IMG/VR virus record: IMGVR_UViG_3300011890_000001
Coordinates: 1-64,000 of that record
Direction: 5' to 3' (one strand)
Length of the DNA: 64,000 nucleotides
Origin: a virus
Lineage: Duplodnaviria > Caudoviricetes
How positions within the stretch are numbered: the first letter of the stretch is position 1; the number at the start of each line of letters is the position of its first letter. The position numbers were made by a program, and so were the translations under genes. Positions 3 to 59,182 of this stretch are shown piece after piece. The notes below the pieces were generated by a model. That model ran no database searches and was not told the DNA's origin. It saw nothing but the letters and a program-made list of their open reading frames with translations.

Positions 3-335
3 GGCAATGAAGCAAGCCGTCCGGTGCAGAACGTGACAACGCAGGCTCCGCAACGTGAGAAGCTGAGCGAGCGTCTGGCGTCTCGTGCTGCACCGCAGTA
101 CGCGGCCGGTTCGGTGGAGTCCGTTCTGGCCGGTCTGTCTGGTCAGCGTCGCCGTACCATCGGTAGCGATGGCGGTAACCGTTCGCGTCGTTGGGGGTTG
201 CCCAACTCCAATGAACCGGATCTGCCGCCGTGGGTGGAGGACAACAGCAGCACGTCGTCCGGCGCCGGCCGTCGTTGGGACGGTTCGTCCGGTTCGGCCC
301 GCGGTCGCATCGGCCGTGGTCGTGATGCGCTGTAA
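3..335 (+). CDS. 3' end of a gene cut off by the window edge; Gly/Arg/Ser-rich disordered C-terminus
   Basis: Frame open from position 3 (GNEASRPVQNV...) to TAA at 335, followed by a terminator hairpin. It lies two genes upstream of the nvRNAP beta gene, where phiKZ gp69 (PicA/Imp1) lies, but the sequence does not confirm that identity. Confidence 0.6.
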   Translation, partial: GNEASRPVQNVTTQAPQREKLSERLASRAAPQYAAGSVESVLAGLSGQRRRTIGSDGGNRSRRWGLPNSNEPDLPPWVEDNSSTSSGAGRRWDGSSGSARGRIGRGRDAL

Positions 336-340
336 AGCGG

Positions 341-377
341 CATAAATGCCAGGGGCCTTCGGGCCCCTGGCTTCATA
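341..377. terminator. bidirectional intrinsic terminator between convergent genes
   Basis: GCCAGGGGCC-TTCG-GGCCCCTGGC (348-371), preceded by CATAA. Confidence 0.85.
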
Positions 378-11003: not shown

Positions 11004-11402
11004 ATGAAAATCAATCTGTCCGATATCCATGACGTACTGCGTCAGACCGGCGCCACTGGCACCGATGCTGGCAACCTGGTGTCCGTTGCTGTGGGTCGTG
11101 TCCTGGCATACGGTCTGCCTCTGAACACTGAGGCCAAGTCGGCCTTCGAAGCCTTCCAGTCCATCGAGAAGCAAGCCGAAGCTTTCCTGGCCCCGATCAA
11201 TGAGCAGTTCCCGATCGACTTCACGAAGGTCATGCTGATCATCAGGGGTCTGTACGAAACTCGCTGGAACCTGGTCTTCCCGAGCTCGGTGCTGCAGCTT
11301 TGCAACCTGGTCGATCCGACCGCCGCAGCTTCCGGTGCCTACGGCGATCTGTCCCCGGCCGATCCGCGCGTCACCATGCTGATTGCTGAAATCTCCAAGT
11401 AA
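11004..11402 (+). CDS. hypothetical protein, probably virion-associated
   Basis: Follows the head protein gene with typical codon usage; terminator at 11406-11444. Confidence 0.7.
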   Translation: MKINLSDIHDVLRQTGATGTDAGNLVSVAVGRVLAYGLPLNTEAKSAFEAFQSIEKQAEAFLAPINEQFPIDFTKVMLIIRGLYETRWNLVFPSSVLQLCNLVDPTAAASGAYGDLSPADPRVTMLIAEISK

Positions 11403-11405
11403 GCG

Positions 11406-11444
11406 GCATAAGTAGAGCCCCGCCCGTTTGGGCGGGGCTCTATG
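11406..11444. terminator. bidirectional terminator
   Basis: GCATAA...TAGAGCCCCGCCC-GTTT-GGGCGGGGCTCTATG. Confidence 0.85.
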
Positions 11445-28363: not shown

Positions 28364-30943
28364 ATGAAGACCAACAAACTGAACGTGGCTGCCGCTCTGC
28401 GCGCTGCCGCTGCTCGTCCGTCGCTGGAATCGGAAGGCACCGTCGTTACCGACAACGCCGCTCCGGAAACCGGTGAAGTCACCGCCGAGACCGACCTGGA
28501 AGCCGTCAAGGCCACCACCGTTGAAGTCGGTGAGCGTTCCGACCTGGAAGCTGCTGAAACTGAACTGAAGGGCGCTGATGCCCATCACGACGGTACCGAG
28601 ACCGCTGTCGAAGACTCCGTATTCGAACACATCGTATCGCAGGAAGGTCTGTCGACTGAAACCAAGGCTAAGATCCGTCGCTTCTTTGGCTCGCCGCTGG
28701 TGACCGGAAAGCTGTACGAAAAGGTCGAGAAGCTGGACGATGAGATCCGCCAGCTCGAAGAGAAGATTTCCGCCGTTAAGAACTACAAGCATGACGCAGA
28801 TAGCGTCTCACTGGAAGGCGCCAAGTGGGAGGGCGTTAAGGCTGATTTTAAGGCCAGTTTTGGCTTCATGCCTGACCCGAAGCGTCCGGGTAAGACCAAG
28901 TGGAGCTTCTTCGGTAGCCCGATGCGTTTGAATGCCGCAAAGGCAAAACAGATCGAAGAACTGGAGAACAAGAAGGCCGAACTGCTCGAAGAGCTGGAAA
29001 GCATGCTCGCCGATAACAAGGATAAGGAATCCGTTTCGCAGGAAAGCCTGATCCTGGTTGGCGCTCTCGCCGGCGGTGCGGCTCTCCTCGGCGGCATGGG
29101 CTGGATTGCAGGCAAGCAGAAGCGGAAGTGCCACGAACTGAATATCGAAATTCAGTCTCTCGAAAAGAAGATCGTGGAGGCCCAGAAGAAGCTCTCCGAT
29201 GCCACCGATCGTGCCATCGCCGAAGCAATCAAGAAGGGCGCTCTTTCGAAGGTCGAAAGTGACGGTACCGAGAGCATCGCTATCGTTGAAGACAACGAGC
29301 ACGTGCAGAAGCTGAAGAACGCCGACGCCAACTATCGTCGTGACTACACCGAAAAGGGCACTGCCATCGTCGGCGCGCTGCTCGGCGCCGGCGCCACCGC
29401 TCTGGCTGGGCCCATCGGCCTGGCCTCCGCGATTGCTGGCGGCGCCATCGGTATGGGTGCCAATGCCGTTCTGATCGCGCAGCTGCGCGACGAACTGAAG
29501 GAAAAGCGCAAGGAACTGAGCGCTGCCGAGAAGGACCTGCTGGAAGGTCTGGCCAACGCGTCCAAGGCCTCGGCCACCAAGGTGTCCAACGAGTCGGAAG
29601 GCTCGGACGAAGCTCAGGCCGCCGGTGAAGCTGCTGCTCAGGCTGCTGCCAACGTTGCCCTCGGTGCCCAGGCCGCTGCTGAAGCCGCTGCTGCCGCTGT
29701 GATCGCTGCTGATGCCGAAGTCATCGGTGAGCCGGTGGAAGAAGCTGCCGCGATCGTGGAAACCGAAGCCGCCTCCGAAGAAACCGAAGCCGAGATCGCT
29801 GCTGACGTCGAACACGTCGAAGAGTACGAGAAGGAAGCGGTTGCCCTGGAAGCCCTGATCGAAGCCGCCCGTGACGCACGCGATGCCGGTGGTTTCAGCC
29901 GCGGTGAAGCCCGTCTGTTCCAGATCGGTTTCGAATCGATCGGTACCCGTCTGACCGGTCAGCCGTTCCTGGCTGAAGACGGCGGTTCGGCCGTTCCGTC
30001 CCTGGAAAGCTTCGGTGGCACCATGTCGCGTCGCGACGCCACCACCATCTCCCTGGAGAACGCCGAATCCTGGCTGGCCAAGATCATTCGCGTGATCAAG
30101 GAAACCTGGAACAAGGTGTGGGGTGCCGTCAAGAAGTTCCTGTCGCAGGTCTTTGATCTGGTCGAGCGCTACAAGGCTCGCGCCGAGAAGGTCAAGAAGG
30201 CTGCCCTGGACGGTCGCACCCAGAAGGCCGACGGCACTGTCAAGTTCGGTTCGGCTGCCAAGATCGCCATCGGCGGCAAGGTGGATGTCTCCGGCGTCGA
30301 CAAGCTGATCCAGCTGGCCTCGGTCGGCGAGAAGCTGGCTGAACTGACCCCGGCCGCTCAGGTGTCGCTGAACGAGATCCTGTACGCCGTCGGACATGAT
30401 GTGTCGAAGGCCGGTGCAGAAGTCGGCAGTTACTACGACTCTCAGGCCACTGCCATCAAGAATGTCTTCACCTCCGGTGGTGCGTTCAGTGACATGGGTG
30501 ACGTTCGCGTCGCTGACGGTCTGCCGGGTAACATGAAGTTCTCGGTCAAGGTCGATGGCGATGACGTCGGTGCCGTTGTCGCCGACGCTGGCGAAGCCGG
30601 TGAGATCGGTGAAGCCCGCGCGCTGTCGGGTCAGGAAACCGCCCAGCTGATGGACAAGGTCATCAAGACCCTGGACGAAGTCGCCAAGGCCAAGTCCGCA
30701 CTGGCCAAGGTCAAGGACGACATCGTCACGTCGATCAATGCCGACGGCGGCAATGTTGCACAGAAGGCAGATGGTGCAGTCGTGCGCATGGTTGGCCGTC
30801 TGATCATGACCTCGACCCGTTCGGTCTCGAAGATCCTGAGCTACTGCGTCAAGACCTCGGGTGGCTACATCGACTACGGCGTGGCTTCGGTCAAGGCCGC
30901 AGGCGCTGGTCAGGCTGCCCGTCAGCAGGCCGCCGCCGCCTGA
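28364..30943 (+). CDS. internal head protein (phiKZ gp93-family-like) with a long multi-module N-terminal region
   Basis: Multiple SLE/SQE/SNE/GTE sites; PSLESFGG...ISLE followed by an amphipathic helix. Confidence 0.75.
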   Translation: MKTNKLNVAAALRAAAARPSLESEGTVVTDNAAPETGEVTAETDLEAVKATTVEVGERSDLEAAETELKGADAHHDGTETAVEDSVFEHIVSQEGLSTETKAKIRRFFGSPLVTGKLYEKVEKLDDEIRQLEEKISAVKNYKHDADSVSLEGAKWEGVKADFKASFGFMPDPKRPGKTKWSFFGSPMRLNAAKAKQIEELENKKAELLEELESMLADNKDKESVSQESLILVGALAGGAALLGGMGWIAGKQKRKCHELNIEIQSLEKKIVEAQKKLSDATDRAIAEAIKKGALSKVESDGTESIAIVEDNEHVQKLKNADANYRRDYTEKGTAIVGALLGAGATALAGPIGLASAIAGGAIGMGANAVLIAQLRDELKEKRKELSAAEKDLLEGLANASKASATKVSNESEGSDEAQAAGEAAAQAAANVALGAQAAAEAAAAAVIAADAEVIGEPVEEAAAIVETEAASEETEAEIAADVEHVEEYEKEAVALEALIEAARDARDAGGFSRGEARLFQIGFESIGTRLTGQPFLAEDGGSAVPSLESFGGTMSRRDATTISLENAESWLAKIIRVIKETWNKVWGAVKKFLSQVFDLVERYKARAEKVKKAALDGRTQKADGTVKFGSAAKIAIGGKVDVSGVDKLIQLASVGEKLAELTPAAQVSLNEILYAVGHDVSKAGAEVGSYYDSQATAIKNVFTSGGAFSDMGDVRVADGLPGNMKFSVKVDGDDVGAVVADAGEAGEIGEARALSGQETAQLMDKVIKTLDEVAKAKSALAKVKDDIVTSINADGGNVAQKADGAVVRMVGRLIMTSTRSVSKILSYCVKTSGGYIDYGVASVKAAGAGQAARQQAAAA

Positions 30944-30970
30944 GCCCAGTTGGTCGTAGTTTGAGTGGTA

Positions 30971-31011
30971 CATAAAGGACGGGGTCTTCGGACCCCGTCC
31001 TTTTTATGCCG
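30971..31011 (+). terminator. intrinsic terminator
   Basis: CATAAAGGACGGGGTC-TTCG-GACCCCGTCCTTTTTATGCCG. Confidence 0.9.
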
Positions 31012-31056
31012 TAATGCTATGGAAAAGATTCCATCCCTTTTAAACAGGAAAGTCCC

Positions 31057-32424
31057 ATGAAGAAGACCGCTTTTACGGCTGCGCTGGAGCAGCATGACGA
31101 CACCGCCCAGGACGAGGTTGTTGAAATCACTGCTGCTGACGTTGAGCAGGGCGAAATCGAATTGGCCAATATCGAAGTCAAGCACGAGAAGGTTGCCAAC
31201 GAACTGGAGTCGGCAGCAACTGAAGTCTGTGAAGACACCGAGGCCGCTGCCACTGAGATCGTTGCTCTGGAATCGCTGCTGGCTACTGTTGGCGAGATGT
31301 CGGAGGTGGGGATGTCCCCCATGGCTGCTCGCCTGTTGCAGGCCTCTCTGCAGCCGTCCCAGGAACGCTACAATGCACACAGCGAATACACCACGCTGTC
31401 CCTGGAATGCTTCAGTGGTCGCCAGGCCGGCACTTCGACCAGCGTGTCGATGGAAGGCATTAAGGAAACGATCGCCAAGATCATCGCCTGGATCAAGGAA
31501 AAGTTCGCACAGTTCGTCGCCTGGGTGAAGCGCAAGTTCGCTGAGTTCCAGAAGGACCTGGGCGTGCTGAGCGAACGCGTTCAGAAACTGAAAGTCGCCA
31601 CGCGCCGGCGCAGCGGTCGCGGTGTTTCGCCTGAGGGTACTGTAGACCTGGGTCGACACGCCGACCGCATTCGCTGGGACGACAAGGTCGACCCTGCCGA
31701 CGTGACCGCCAACATGCAGCGCTTGGCACAGCTGGTCAATGCGCCGGAAGGCGCCTACGAGGCAGTTCTGAAGAACGTTCGCAGCGCCGTTGCCGAAAAC
31801 ATACTCAATGGTGATGAGATCGACGTTTCGTCGCACCTACACATTCCGGAAGGCTGGCACAAGGCCCGTATACAGTCAGTCGGCTTTTTTGACAGCATTG
31901 CTATTTATGCCTCGCCGGAGTTCCCGGGTCAGCGTCTCATGACCATGTCAATTCCTGCTGGTTTTGGTGGGTTCGGCGCACCTAAGGTGGGCGAGTCGAC
32001 TCAGACCAAGAAGCGCCTGACTCTGGGCGTCTGGCGTGATCCGAAGGTCAAGGCACTGGAAACCACCAAGGTGCCGTATCTGTCCACTGAACAGATTCAG
32101 AAGTTCTGCATGGATGCCGACGGCGCGATCAACAAGATCAAGGGCGTGATGAGTGCTTACGAGAACTACAGTAAGCGCATCGCTGACACTCTCACCGAAG
32201 GTTTGAAGCGTCAGGACGGTCAGAAGGACGAAATCAAGGAAGCGTCCGTGATGGATGCTGTCAACAAGATCAACGCTGTTGGCAATCTCTTCCTGACCGA
32301 TCTGGTCCAGTCCTGCTCCGGCCAGGCCTACAACGTCATTGCGTCGTACTGCGTCTGGGCTGAGAAGTCCGCTGCTGCCATCGTTGCAAAGGAAAAGGCC
32401 GCCGCGGCTGAAGCTGCCGCGTAA
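31057..32424 (+). CDS. internal head protein (gp93/94/95-family paralog)
   Basis: Acidic propeptide with ALE/SLE/SME, then IAKIIAWIKEKFAQFVAWVK; TATG at 31018. Confidence 0.75.
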   Translation: MKKTAFTAALEQHDDTAQDEVVEITAADVEQGEIELANIEVKHEKVANELESAATEVCEDTEAAATEIVALESLLATVGEMSEVGMSPMAARLLQASLQPSQERYNAHSEYTTLSLECFSGRQAGTSTSVSMEGIKETIAKIIAWIKEKFAQFVAWVKRKFAEFQKDLGVLSERVQKLKVATRRRSGRGVSPEGTVDLGRHADRIRWDDKVDPADVTANMQRLAQLVNAPEGAYEAVLKNVRSAVAENILNGDEIDVSSHLHIPEGWHKARIQSVGFFDSIAIYASPEFPGQRLMTMSIPAGFGGFGAPKVGESTQTKKRLTLGVWRDPKVKALETTKVPYLSTEQIQKFCMDADGAINKIKGVMSAYENYSKRIADTLTEGLKRQDGQKDEIKEASVMDAVNKINAVGNLFLTDLVQSCSGQAYNVIASYCVWAEKSAAAIVAKEKAAAAEAAA

Positions 32425-34065: not shown

Positions 34066-36240
34066 ATGAGTGCTCCCAGTTACTCTCTTGCCCAGCGCCT
34101 GATCGCCATTGGCGCTCAGCAACGCTTGGCTGCCTCGTTGGAGAACGCCGACGATCTCGACCAAGAATCCTTGGACGAAGTCGCACGCAAGGCTGCCGAG
34201 TCCATGCCGGGCGAATCCACCGAAACCACCCCGCCCGCTGAAGAAGGCGGCGAAACCGCTGCGCCGGAAGTTGGCGATACTGGCGAGGCAGCTCCCGATG
34301 AAACCGCCGCTCCCGCCGAGGGCGAAGCTGCACCGGAAGCCGAACTGTCGCTCGACGACACCCCGCCGGCCGAAGAAGGTACGGAAGCCGACCCGACTGC
34401 CGAGCAGATCGAAACCCCGACTGAGCAGGTCGTGGAAGATCTGAGCGAGACCGGCGAAGCTGAAGATACCGCGGTGGCTGACGCTGCCGTTGCGGAAGCC
34501 GGTGAAGCCACTGCCGATCCGATTCCGGAAACCGCACCGGCTGAATCAACCGAAGTGGAAGCCGCCGCAGCCGCGGCTGAACCGCCCGCTCCCGCTGCCG
34601 ACGATTCCGCGGCCGTGGCGGAGCCCCAGCCGGCCGAGTCGGCCGACGCTGGTGCCGCTGCTCTGACCGCAGACGCAGAACAGGCTGAACCGGCTCAGCA
34701 GGCTGCTGAGGCACCCAGCGCAAGTCAGGACAGCGAAGCTGCTCTGAACGTGGCTGACGTGCTGGAAGCTGTTGCTTCGGCGCGCAATGCGCAGGAAGTG
34801 GTCGAACAAGCCCGTGAGACTTCCGACTCTCTGACCGACATCGGCGAGACCGTGTCGGCCATCAATGAGAAAGGCGGCGCCTCGATGGAAACCTACGCGA
34901 TGCTGATTCACGCTGTGGGTCATCACGAACGTGTCCTGGGTCGCAGTCTGCTCAACAGCGTCTCGCTGGAAAGCTTCGCCGCCCGTCCGCGCACTGTCAG
35001 TCTGGAGTCGATCGCTGACGCCGTCCGCGAACTGGAAGGTAACCTCCCGGTGATGGAACGTCAGGCAGTCGAAAGCCTGGATCGCATTCGTGACAGCGTG
35101 CTGACTGCCCTGCCGCAGATCCGCGCGCGTCTGCACGACGTGATCTCCCAAGCCGGTCTGGTGAACGGAGCTGGTGGTCATGACCTGCAGCTGGAAGGTG
35201 GTTTGGCCGCTGCCATGTCGGTTGATGGCGCACTGCCTGAAAACCTGAATGAGGTTCTGATCTCCTATACCGACCTGGGTTCCCGTATTCTGGGTCGCTA
35301 CAGTGAGACGGCATTCCGTTCTGCACGCGAAGCTTCCATGCTGAACAATGCGGTGGACTTCTCCTCGCTGTCGGCATTCTGGGAGCGCATGGGTCCGAAG
35401 GTGCTGGCTATCCGCGATCCGCGTCACGAGCTGACGACCGATCATCTGGTCAAGAGTCTGCCGGGCGGTAGCCGTCTGTTCGACAACACTCCTGCGGTTT
35501 CTGCCGCAGAGGGTTCCGAGGCTCTGTCCGCAGTGGTGCGCTTCACCACCGAGAACATGCCGATGGAAGCTTCTGTTCTGTCGACCTCGATCTCCGGCGG
35601 CGTTACCAAGGCGCTCTCCTGCTCCATGATCGTACATATCGCGCAGCGCCTTCTGGAGGTGCTGGACGAGTGCAAGATCAAGGCGGTCTTTGCTGAGGGC
35701 ACCAAGCTGTGGCCTGAAGCTCAGGACTCGGTGCGATTCCTGCGGGAAACCTTCCGTGACGGTCCGGATGATGTGGTCAACGACCCGTCGGGTCACCTGC
35801 ACCAGATCATCAAGTTCGTCGAAACGGCGTACTCGCTGACCACCTGGCCGATCGTCAACTACCTGGCCAACGCAATCATCACTGCCAATGCGTTCGTCAC
35901 TCTGGCTGCAGAGTCGATGAAGCCGGAAGAGGCCCCGGTCGCTGACCCTGGCGTGATTCAGCAGGACGCTGTGGTCGACGAAGCACCGCCTGTGGAAGAA
36001 CCGGTACTGGAGACTCCGGTGGAAGAAACCCCGGCCGAAACCGCGGACCTGGACCCGGCTGCTGGCGAGTCCGAGGCTGACCTCGATACCCCTCCGGAAG
36101 CTGAGGAAGAGGAAATCCCCGAACCCTCGGAAACCTCGACCGACGACCTGGAAGGCGATGACGCTGACCCGGAACTGGATGACTTCGAAGGTGAAGCAAC
36201 CGACCTGGACGACGAAGACGAAGAGCAGATCAAGCTCTAA
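34066..36240 (+). CDS. inner-body-type head protein with acidic disordered N- and C-termini (phiKZ gp97-like)
   Basis: Long E/A/P/T low-complexity regions, VSLESF..VSLES and LPGG motif; TATG at 34026. Confidence 0.7.
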   Translation: MSAPSYSLAQRLIAIGAQQRLAASLENADDLDQESLDEVARKAAESMPGESTETTPPAEEGGETAAPEVGDTGEAAPDETAAPAEGEAAPEAELSLDDTPPAEEGTEADPTAEQIETPTEQVVEDLSETGEAEDTAVADAAVAEAGEATADPIPETAPAESTEVEAAAAAAEPPAPAADDSAAVAEPQPAESADAGAAALTADAEQAEPAQQAAEAPSASQDSEAALNVADVLEAVASARNAQEVVEQARETSDSLTDIGETVSAINEKGGASMETYAMLIHAVGHHERVLGRSLLNSVSLESFAARPRTVSLESIADAVRELEGNLPVMERQAVESLDRIRDSVLTALPQIRARLHDVISQAGLVNGAGGHDLQLEGGLAAAMSVDGALPENLNEVLISYTDLGSRILGRYSETAFRSAREASMLNNAVDFSSLSAFWERMGPKVLAIRDPRHELTTDHLVKSLPGGSRLFDNTPAVSAAEGSEALSAVVRFTTENMPMEASVLSTSISGGVTKALSCSMIVHIAQRLLEVLDECKIKAVFAEGTKLWPEAQDSVRFLRETFRDGPDDVVNDPSGHLHQIIKFVETAYSLTTWPIVNYLANAIITANAFVTLAAESMKPEEAPVADPGVIQQDAVVDEAPPVEEPVLETPVEETPAETADLDPAAGESEADLDTPPEAEEEEIPEPSETSTDDLEGDDADPELDDFEGEATDLDDEDEEQIKL

Positions 36241-36263
36241 GTAACCGTCTGGTTCAGAAAAGT

Positions 36264-36302
36264 GCATGCGGAGGGGGCCACAGGCCCCCTCCGCTTATGC
36301 CG
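36264..36302 (+). terminator. intrinsic terminator
   Basis: GCGGAGGGGGCC-ACA-GGCCCCCTCCGC-TTATGCCG. Confidence 0.85.
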
Positions 36303-36329
36303 CTTTTCACATCGTATTTTCTTTTGATG

Positions 36330-36520
36330 GGAATAACCTAGGTTGTAGAACCACCCAGTGCCGCTACATTGCTCAAAGTGCGGGTTGGTTCTACTCTGCC
36401 GGATCTACTCGAATACTTTGGGGAAAGGAGCCATTCGTCTAGATCCATACCTACCAACTTTGTTGACTTGGCCGCTTTAATGGGGAAACCAATTTGAATT
36501 AGGCAAGATCAAACGAAGGA
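36330..36520 (+). promoter_or_regulatory. structured 5' leader / candidate cis-regulatory RNA
   Basis: Nested stems TAGGT/ACCTA, GTAGAACCA/TGGTTCTAC, GGATCTA/TAGATCC, CGAAT/ATTCG, plus a third hairpin reaching the RBS. Confidence 0.5.
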
Positions 36521-36527
36521 ATTATTT

Positions 36528-36947
36528 ATGCGTCAATTTTTCTCCCACAACAAGAATACCCCCCTGCCTTTGCGTATCACGGTCGAAGAGCCGATGGCTC
36601 GAACGATCGCGCCGCACCACTACACCATCGACGGTTTCGATACCTCCAACAATCGAGCCGCTAGGGCAAGTGGATTTATCCCCAGGCACCGGGAGACGGT
36701 ACTCATTTTTGAAGATGAAGACAATCCGTTTAAGACACCTACCGGTGTTACGGTTGATGCCGTCCTGGCGGTCTTGATCGATCATTTGGATGCCAAGCAA
36801 GGAATGAGTGTAAGACGCTTTAGCCCAGGCTGGCGCGCCTTGGAGCTGTTGCGCGAAGCTCGTGACCTCCTCGATGAAGCCGGCGGAGCGCCGGCCGGGT
36901 TTGACTTTGAGAACCTGAGTCGCGGTAGAAGGAATTCCGCTTTTTAA
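36528..36947 (+). CDS. divergent Tad1-like (Thoeris anti-defence 1 fold) protein
   Basis: APHHYTI...VLIF...TGVTVDAVLAVLIDHL...ALELLREA matches the recalled Tad1 pattern (GA.H.Y.I...I.FQ.G...GV....LL.IV.DRL...AL..VEEA); AAGGA RBS. Confidence 0.55.
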   Translation: MRQFFSHNKNTPLPLRITVEEPMARTIAPHHYTIDGFDTSNNRAARASGFIPRHRETVLIFEDEDNPFKTPTGVTVDAVLAVLIDHLDAKQGMSVRRFSPGWRALELLREARDLLDEAGGAPAGFDFENLSRGRRNSAF

Positions 36948-36949
36948 TC

Positions 36950-36995
36950 CATAACTGGCCTCCCAGACCACTGAGGTCTGGGAGGTTTATGCCGC
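36950..36995 (+). terminator. intrinsic terminator
   Basis: CCTCCCAGACC-ACTGA-GGTCTGGGAGG-TTTATGCCG. Confidence 0.85.
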
Positions 36996-37014
36996 TATTT
37001 GGAAAACGTGTGGA

Positions 37015-37101
37015 TTTAAAAAAATCTCGCAACCATATAGTCGTTGTGAGCAAGAGCAGTAATGTTCTTTGAGCTCATTAAACTCTTTTGTCAAACAAGG
37101 A
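37015..37101 (+). promoter_or_regulatory. early-type promoter, leader hairpin and TGTCAAACAAGGA box
   Basis: AAAATCTCGCAACCATATAGTCGTTGTGAGCAAGAGCAGTAATG is nearly identical to 59112-59155. Confidence 0.75.
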
Positions 37102-37110
37102 AATAGTACC

Positions 37111-37347
37111 ATGGCTAAGATCAAGAACTTTGCAGGCGCCACTGTTGCTCACGTGAGCCGCAACAAGTGGCGTTATGTCGCCGGTGTCGCCACTGCCGCT
37201 GTGGCGGCCGGTGCTTACGTGATGTTGCGCAATACCCCGGTCGGCACGGTCGCCGAGGCCGCTGCTGACGCGATGCTGGAAGGTGCGGCCGACGCGGGGG
37301 CCGTTGTCGTCACCGCTGCTGAAGCTGCCGCTGAAGCGGTAGCCTAA
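37111..37347 (+). CDS. small Ala-rich single-pass membrane protein (early)
   Basis: MAKIKNF...KWRYVAGVATAAVAAGAYVML; RBS within the conserved box. Confidence 0.75.
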   Translation: MAKIKNFAGATVAHVSRNKWRYVAGVATAAVAAGAYVMLRNTPVGTVAEAAADAMLEGAADAGAVVVTAAEAAAEAVA

Positions 37348-43665: not shown

Positions 43666-43686
43666 TACCGCCTCCGTAAGGAATAG

Positions 43687-43725
43687 CGGCATAAAGCCCC
43701 CTCCCTTCGGGGAGGGGGTCTTATG
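43687..43725. terminator. bidirectional terminator
   Basis: GGCATAAAGCCCCCTCCC-TTCG-GGGAGGGGGTCTTATG-type hairpin between convergent genes. Confidence 0.85.
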
Positions 43726-59104: not shown

Positions 59105-59182
59105 AAATAAAAAAATCTCACAACCATATAGTCGTTGTGAGCAAGAGCAATAATGCGATTGCCAAACCCTGTCAAACAAGGA
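59105..59182 (+). promoter_or_regulatory. early-type promoter, leader and TGTCAAACAAGGA box
   Basis: Near-duplicate of 37015-37101. Confidence 0.75.

Follow-up and report, generated by a model that had tools for sequence, protein, structure and literature searches.

A highly divergent Tad1 homologue with a remodelled ligand pocket in the head-gene region of a phiKZ-like jumbo phage

A 139-aa protein encoded in a phiKZ-like jumbo phage record is a true, highly divergent homologue of Tad1, a phage sponge protein that takes up the signalling molecules of bacterial immunity, but residue by residue it does not qualify as a canonical Tad1 sponge. Its gene lies in a 64,000-nt stretch of DNA (the window) belonging to a record of 269,065 bp that is ~90% complete; phiKZ-type core genes neighbour the ORF, and the nearest cultured relatives of the phage are the Xanthomonas jumbo phages RTH11 and LucasX, both distant. 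A preliminary description had claimed Tad1 likeness from a few short motifs, and profile homology and fold now bear this out. Judging from the pattern of replaced and newly conserved residues, we consider it most likely, with a probability of roughly one half, that the protein is a small-molecule sponge whose specificity has been changed. The context in which this reading is set, namely a jumbo-phage precedent in phiKZ, membership of a small conserved clade and a tandem paralogue in sister phages, was absent from the preliminary description. Features of the gene and its product are collected in Table 1.

Table 1. Features of the Tad1-fold gene, its product and the sister-phage paralogues. Unprefixed coordinates are window positions; residues are those of the 139-aa protein unless CbTad1 is named.
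Feature	Position	Strand	Role or basis
Strong GC-rich hairpin past the 724-aa gene, then TTATGCCGCT	36262..36304	+	fold of 36236-36330
Non-coding leader, ~200 nt	36305..36512	+	paralogue position in sister phages; no Rfam match
Ribosome-binding region, GAAGGA then AT-rich spacer, before ATG	36513..36527	+	read from sequence
Tad1-fold gene	36528..36947	+	139 aa; ORF, profile homology, model, fold matches
12-bp GC-rich hairpin right after stop codon, then TTATGCCGCT	36958..36996	+	fold of 36945-37000
Tandem paralogue, LucasX (LUCX_114)	L038:3532-3957
Tandem paralogue, RTH11	L001:4542-4916
Tandem paralogue, IMG/VR contig L005	L005:5548-5916
Beta-strands	residues 2-6, 15-20, 31-35, 56-61		predicted model
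Helices	residues 76-92, 100-118		predicted model
Disordered tail	residues 119-139		predicted model, pLDDT <50
Counterpart of CbTad1 F-Q-N-G loop with G55	F-E-D-E; G55 -> E64		backbone contact (published)
Counterpart of CbTad1 R78	H86		ribose (published)
Counterpart of CbTad1 F82	K90		adenine stack (published)
Counterpart of CbTad1 G85	S94		104/104 canonical
Counterpart of CbTad1 F87	R96		ribose (published)
Counterpart of CbTad1 R90	S99		trinucleotide phosphate (published)
Counterpart of CbTad1 N92	G101		base reading (published)
Counterpart of CbTad1 T97	E106		trinucleotide phosphate (published)
Counterpart of CbTad1 W105	L114		aligned with CmTad1 hexamer-interface Trp
Counterpart of CbTad1 R109	A118		phosphate / adenine stack (published)
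Counterpart of CbTad1 R113	P122		phosphate (published)
Counterpart of CbTad1 G120	N129		lid, 104/104 canonical
Counterpart of CbTad1 R-G-V-E-G-T lid	absent		closes over ligand (published)

Searched as a single sequence, the protein had no match in Pfam, PHROGs, NCBIfam or, with phmmer, the PDB, remaining below the thresholds of both Pfam PF24729 and the PDB, and pairwise BLASTP against phiKZ gp184 also gave no match. An exhaustive phmmer search returned a 91%-identical, full-length twin on another contig and a few relatives 126-145 aa long. A 3183-aa match from the representative search (P0005) was set aside as a repeat protein, not a relative, with a score built up from many weak matches to its repeats. 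The first profile (A1) found phiKZ gp184 as its best PDB match (8Y6V chain I, residues 112-216, E 1.8e-12), followed by all solved Tad1 chains at E ~1e-7. As A1 included one canonical Tad1 (P0008) that could have driven the PDB match, we repeated the homology tests with profiles restricted to divergent sequences. A profile of the seven closest relatives, all from one subclade (A2), matched gp184 over the whole domain (residues 101-211, E 2e-5), and a profile of 16 exclusively divergent sequences (A4) aligned with one of 43 canonical Tad1 sequences from proteobacterial phages (A5) at 99.9% in hhalign, with E 2e-36 over 121 columns. The canonical profile A5 matched the solved chains of CbTad1, CmTad1 and phiKZ gp184 at E 1e-23 to 5e-25. 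The likeness is thus far beyond chance, with significant profile similarity to experimentally defined Tad1 across the whole domain, and we regard both homology and fold as settled.

The motifs on which the original claim was built find their counterparts in the alignments. HHYTI corresponds to canonical H-R-Y-D-I and to H29-E-Y-V-I of CbTad1; VLIF corresponds to I-L-F(Q) and, in CbTad1, I-K-F(Q); GVTVDAVLAVLIDHL corresponds to G-I-T-x-E-A-L-L-A-I-x-I-D-R-L and, in CbTad1, G-V-I-D-S-D-L-L-E-I-V-R-D-R-L; and ALELLREA corresponds to canonical A-L-T-H-x-E-x-A. The core shared with canonical Tad1 takes in the LLA-x-x-x-D helix, the helix positions A104, A111 and L115, and five residues that are invariant in 120/120 aligned sequences (Y32, G36, N42, F61 and G73). 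The tail of the 139-aa protein is 6 residues longer than that of canonical Tad1.

AlphaFold2 run with a 120-row alignment gave a model with a pLDDT of 80.9, confident through residue 118 and with the topology expected of Tad1, a four-stranded antiparallel N-terminal sheet (pLDDT ~74-93) followed by two long helices; run on the single sequence it reached a pLDDT of 43 and gave no usable model. Since the alignment was dominated by canonical Tad1, the fold call from this model alone is partly circular, but the ESM Atlas language-model structure of the exact protein was made without that alignment and agrees, which removes the worry that the alignment had imposed the fold. The nearest cluster of the ESM Atlas structure is 'Acb2/Tad1 hairpin domain-containing' (PF24729; TM 0.67/0.74, residues 1-125). 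The preliminary description had suggested a Foldseek comparison with Tad1 structures as a check: every match of the AlphaFold2 model at probability 1.00 was a Tad1 entry, and these filled the top ~20 places. VIA-align recovered the same full-length fold in canonical Tad1 (CbTad1 7UAV/7UAW, CmTad1 8KBB, SBSphiJ7 Tad1 and the PF24729 homologues of proteobacterial phages) at Z 8.7 over 113 residues with an rmsd of 4.6 A; its full-length matches were Tad1 chains only, and every other match covered the helical hairpin alone. That hairpin domain is shared with Acb2 (Pfam Acb2_Tad1_hairpin, PF24729), but Acb2 is an all-helical small protomer with no beta-sheet, in contrast to the four-stranded N-terminal sheet modelled here, and the Foldseek and VIA match listings contained no Acb2 chain, their full-length matches being to Tad1 only.

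To locate the ligand site we used the CbTad1 sequence with its published contact residues and counted conservation in 104 canonical homologues. FQxGPFxxREN and RxxDRxxRxVxGT are the ligand-contact motifs of Tad1, as checked against the CbTad1 sequence and the published residues, and both are gone: K-Q-G-M-S-V-R-R-F-S-P-G stands in place of the first and an unrelated tail in place of the C-terminal one. The pocket had already been called remodelled on this basis, correctly, and the remodelling is more thorough than was stated. R78, R109 and R113, like the two glycines tabulated as such, occur in 104/104 canonical homologues, F82 in 103/104 and N92 in 102/104; G55 and F87 (as F or Y) are likewise kept, within the range of 102-104/104. 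Among H29, G55, R78, F82, F87, N92, R109, R113 and G120, the sole residue kept in the 139-aa protein is the equivalent of H29 (H30), so that the gcADPR/cyclic-dinucleotide pocket of the canonical sponge is not preserved at the residue level. The same holds for the cyclic-trinucleotide site and hexamer interface (the R90, T97 and W105 region), a site that is only moderately conserved among canonical homologues themselves (R or K at R90 in 77/104, T at T97 in 75/104). The beta4-alpha1 loop has turned acidic, with E-D-E for Q-N-G. At its C-terminal end the protein reads R-G-R-R-N-S-A-F; most members of its subclade end in R-T-G-T-L, which may be a remnant of the canonical lid (R116-x-V-x-G120-T). 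With nearly every ligand-holding residue replaced, the protein probably has a different ligand or a different function.

Far from being a one-off, the protein is a member of a small conserved clade. All 16 of the 16 divergent sequences carry H at the R78 site, and a maximum-likelihood tree, unrooted and built on few columns, places them apart from 54 canonical sequences, among them phiKZ gp184 and Agrobacterium phage OLIVR5 gp79c, with an SH-aLRT of 95. OLIVR5 gp79c (L002:4001-4402) is annotated 'ABC transporter ATPase', a misleading molecule name that PDB 7UAV also bears; it is a clear canonical Tad1, with E 5e-15 to CbTad1 and 2e-19 to phiKZ gp184. Subclade 'a', to which our protein belongs, numbers nine sequences: the seven of the alignment and the orthologues from RTH11 and L005, which were brought in for the tree; the LucasX orthologue is unplaced. 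Contigs of more than 30 kb with a member of this subclade are all jumbo-sized (173, 269, 273, 311 and 312 kb), and LucasX is 306 kb. A jumbo genome cannot by itself account for the divergence, since some jumbo contigs carry canonical Tad1.

Within the subclade, conservation has shifted to new positions. The seven-sequence alignment has 29 invariant columns at 36-43% identity, among them the H29 equivalent and five arginines (R16, R43, R46, R53 and R112) that are unconserved in canonical Tad1. Three of these five sit in the extended beta3-beta4 loop, which, going by the published topology, should face the end of the partner's pocket in the head-to-tail dimer. Most derived of all are the 139-aa protein and its 91% twin, which share a stem branch of 1.26 and have lost the R-T-G-T-L ending.

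We take the ATG at 36528 as the right start because an AAGGA Shine-Dalgarno sequence lies ~8 nt 5' of it and because the N-terminal M-R-Q is kept in all close homologues. An antisense ORF overlapping the gene (36522-36971) is without support. On one flank of the gene lie two internal-head-protein genes (28364-32424, phrog_2497) and the gene of an acidic 724-aa protein, and on the other a core 556-aa protein (phrog_3289) and a virion structural protein (phrog_3013). The 724-aa protein (34066-36240), which adjoins the internal head protein genes, has an N-terminal third and a C-terminal tail that are extremely acidic and rich in Ala, Glu and Pro, and a central part conserved in RTH11 and L005 (37%); it belongs to no Pfam or PHROG family.

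A simple scan for promoters and terminators found none, having missed hairpins with short T-tracts that emerged on folding. Upstream, the folded stretch around the hairpin at 36262-36294 reaches -45.7 kcal/mol (z -6.5 against shuffles), and this hairpin is likely the terminator of the 724-aa gene, possibly followed by a TATG-type late start. Downstream, the stretch around the hairpin at 36958-36985 reaches -26.7 kcal/mol (z -5.0 against shuffles), and this hairpin marks the end of the transcription unit. With hairpins at both ends and internal head and virion structural neighbours, the gene forms its own transcription unit within the structural region, as the preliminary description had it. 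The leader (36330-36530) forms several helices, mildly better than shuffles (z -2.7), and an Rfam search of 36100-37200 found no family; with Rfam blank and a z of only -2.7, we do not endorse a riboswitch.

The 10-mer that follows both hairpins, TTATGCCGCT, has 5 exact copies in the window, at 336-345(-), 11402-11411(-), 36295-36304(+), 36987-36996(+) and 43685-43694(-), and with one mismatch allowed it has 9 matches against 2.8 expected. In the two copies that were folded, at 36295 and 36987, a strong GC-rich gene-end hairpin has the 10-mer as its 3' flank. The 10-mer contains TATG, the phiKZ late promoter consensus, and together with the hairpin it may serve this phage as a joint module for termination and late start. 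Another short sequence, CATATAGTC, has only 2 exact copies in the window (37034-37042 and 59125-59133), each before small genes.

RTH11, LucasX and the IMG/VR contig L005 share a common gene order: 493-aa, 724-aa, Tad1-like, small membrane protein, 556-aa and 468-aa. The Tad1-like gene is 43-45% identical to its orthologues in these three, and the structural neighbours are 37-55% identical. The shared order and a divergence like that of its neighbours identify the gene as a vertically inherited resident of the region. Directly upstream of the orthologue, each of the three sister phages has a further Tad1-fold gene, an even more divergent paralogue. LUCX_114 of LucasX aligned with A4 at 96.8% in hhalign (E 2e-10), and paralogues and orthologues give reciprocal tblastn cross-matches; LUCX_114 and its RTH11 and L005 orthologues thus belong to the same divergent clade and fold, differing in being shorter and lacking the G-F-D-T-x-x-N loop. 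In the window phage a 287-nt non-coding spacer (36241-36527) stands where the sister phages have the paralogue, and tblastn of this spacer and the rest of the genome found no remnant of it. The 269-kb record contains no second Tad1-like sequence.

In the mechanism that we favour, the gene encodes a Tad1 homologue of predicted four-stranded N-terminal sheet and two-helix hairpin that most likely still forms a head-to-tail Tad1-type oligomer. Canonical Tad1 sponges assemble as dimers and trimers of dimers whose pockets lie between protomers; the oligomeric state of the 139-aa protein is uncertain because the hexamer-interface equivalents of R90, T97 and W105 are changed. In place of the contact residues of the gcADPR/cyclic-dinucleotide pocket and the trinucleotide site, the protein would present the invariant R16, R43, R46, R53 and R112, and would act as a sponge or binder against a signalling-type host defence, holding a small molecule other than the ligands of canonical Tad1. 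Such a shift would have parallels, since sponge families are known to re-specify ligands: of 84 sponge homologues tested, 19 inhibited none of seven systems, and the sponge-diversity preprint tested 20 Tad1 proteins. Complete loss of nucleotide binding would also fit the sequence, with both ligand sites gone and an acidic loop where the CbTad1 backbone contacts phosphate. A more tentative extension is that the whole jumbo-phage Tad1 branch, with its pocket rebuilt from invariant beta3-beta4 and helix 2 arginines and its tandem duplication in sisters, takes up at least one immune or regulatory small molecule not yet reported as the ligand of any known sponge, which we hold as a possibility.

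The closest solved relative bears on how such a protein might be delivered. Secondary literature describes phiKZ gp184 as a bona fide jumbo-phage Tad1, whose Tad1 domain is freed by the head protease and then injected. Within the inner vertex complex gp184 serves as a minor capsid protein, whose N-terminal part is wedged and retained in the capsid. The C-terminal domain of gp184 (8Y6V chain I, 101-230) is the best sequence match among solved structures and comes, too, from a jumbo phage of phiKZ type. The two proteins have the same domain boundaries, M1 here aligning with M101 of gp184, and the same extended beta3-beta4 loop with the motif G-(F/Y)-(D/N)-x-x-x-N, but gp184 keeps Q-x-G-P-F, E-N and an R-x-x-R...G-T-E-G-T tail that the 139-aa protein lacks. 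Whereas gp184 has a 100-residue N-terminal part, the 139-aa protein begins directly with the Tad1 domain, and sequence inspection found no propeptide and no S/A/G-x-E protease site near its N-terminus. The gp184-type route, in which a capsid-bound propeptide is cut by the head protease, is accordingly unsupported here, and no synteny with the gp184 neighbourhood was found, the two neighbourhoods being unrelated. Lacking an N-terminal capsid-targeting propeptide, the protein is probably synthesised within the infected cell, from a monocistronic unit of its own, and would not be proteolytically released from the capsid.

This comparison also weighs on the best-surviving alternative, that the Tad1 scaffold has lost sequestration and been repurposed for protein or nucleic-acid contacts, for instance as a factor associated with the virion or injected, or one that directly inhibits a host protein. 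Apart from the H29 equivalent, every known ligand-contact residue is replaced and the beta4-alpha1 loop is acidic, as repurposing would predict; the gene is stable and syntenic between internal head and virion genes instead of lying in a variable accessory island; and the phiKZ Tad1 product belongs physically, through its N-terminal part, to the capsid vertex complex. We nevertheless find this alternative doubtful: no phiKZ-type packaging signal is visible, given the missing propeptide and protease site, no partner is evident, and the conserved arginines and sheet-end loop residues resemble an anion-binding site more than they do a protein interface.

Preserved function by other means, in which the canonical ligands (3'cADPR/2'cADPR or cGAMP-type dinucleotides) are held by the new arginines and the retained histidine, appears unlikely. 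H30 does not vary within the subclade, sister sequences retain Q83-S-G-P as well as an R-T-G-T-L ending that resembles the canonical lid, and the five new invariant arginines could stand in for R78, R109 and R113. Yet there are no evident substitutes for the stacking F82 and F87 or the base-reading N92, and the 139-aa protein has lost the G-T ending as well. In CbTad1 the double mutants F82A/N92A and R109A/R113A bind with severely reduced strength. A decaying relic, a former Tad1 drifting without function, is the least probable reading: the long stem branch to the protein and its twin, the loss of the sister phages' tandem paralogue in the window phage and the disordered tail would suit decay, but the gene has an uninterrupted reading frame, preceded by a good ribosome-binding site and followed by a terminator of its own, the 91%-identical twin is also full length, core and loop positions are invariant in orthologues at ~40% identity, and the model is confident to residue 118.

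A re-specified sponge thus remains our preferred reading of a Tad1 scaffold that is under clear selection and has yet exchanged its known ligand contacts, keeping the H29 equivalent. As the protein gives no single-sequence match in Pfam, PHROGs, NCBIfam or the PDB, anti-defence annotation based on motifs or Pfam misses the clade. Its fixed place among the head genes of a jumbo-phage lineage and its duplication in relatives make the gene a concrete and cheap candidate in the search for a new ligand or for another use of this fold. Should the 139-aa protein bind nothing, it would document the recycling of a sponge fold. Sponges have revealed bacterial immune signals before, Tad1 leading to gcADPR and a Tad2 homologue to His-ADPR. 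If the new-ligand reading is true, the protein may serve as bait for a hitherto unknown bacterial defence signal, in the way that Tad1 served for gcADPR.
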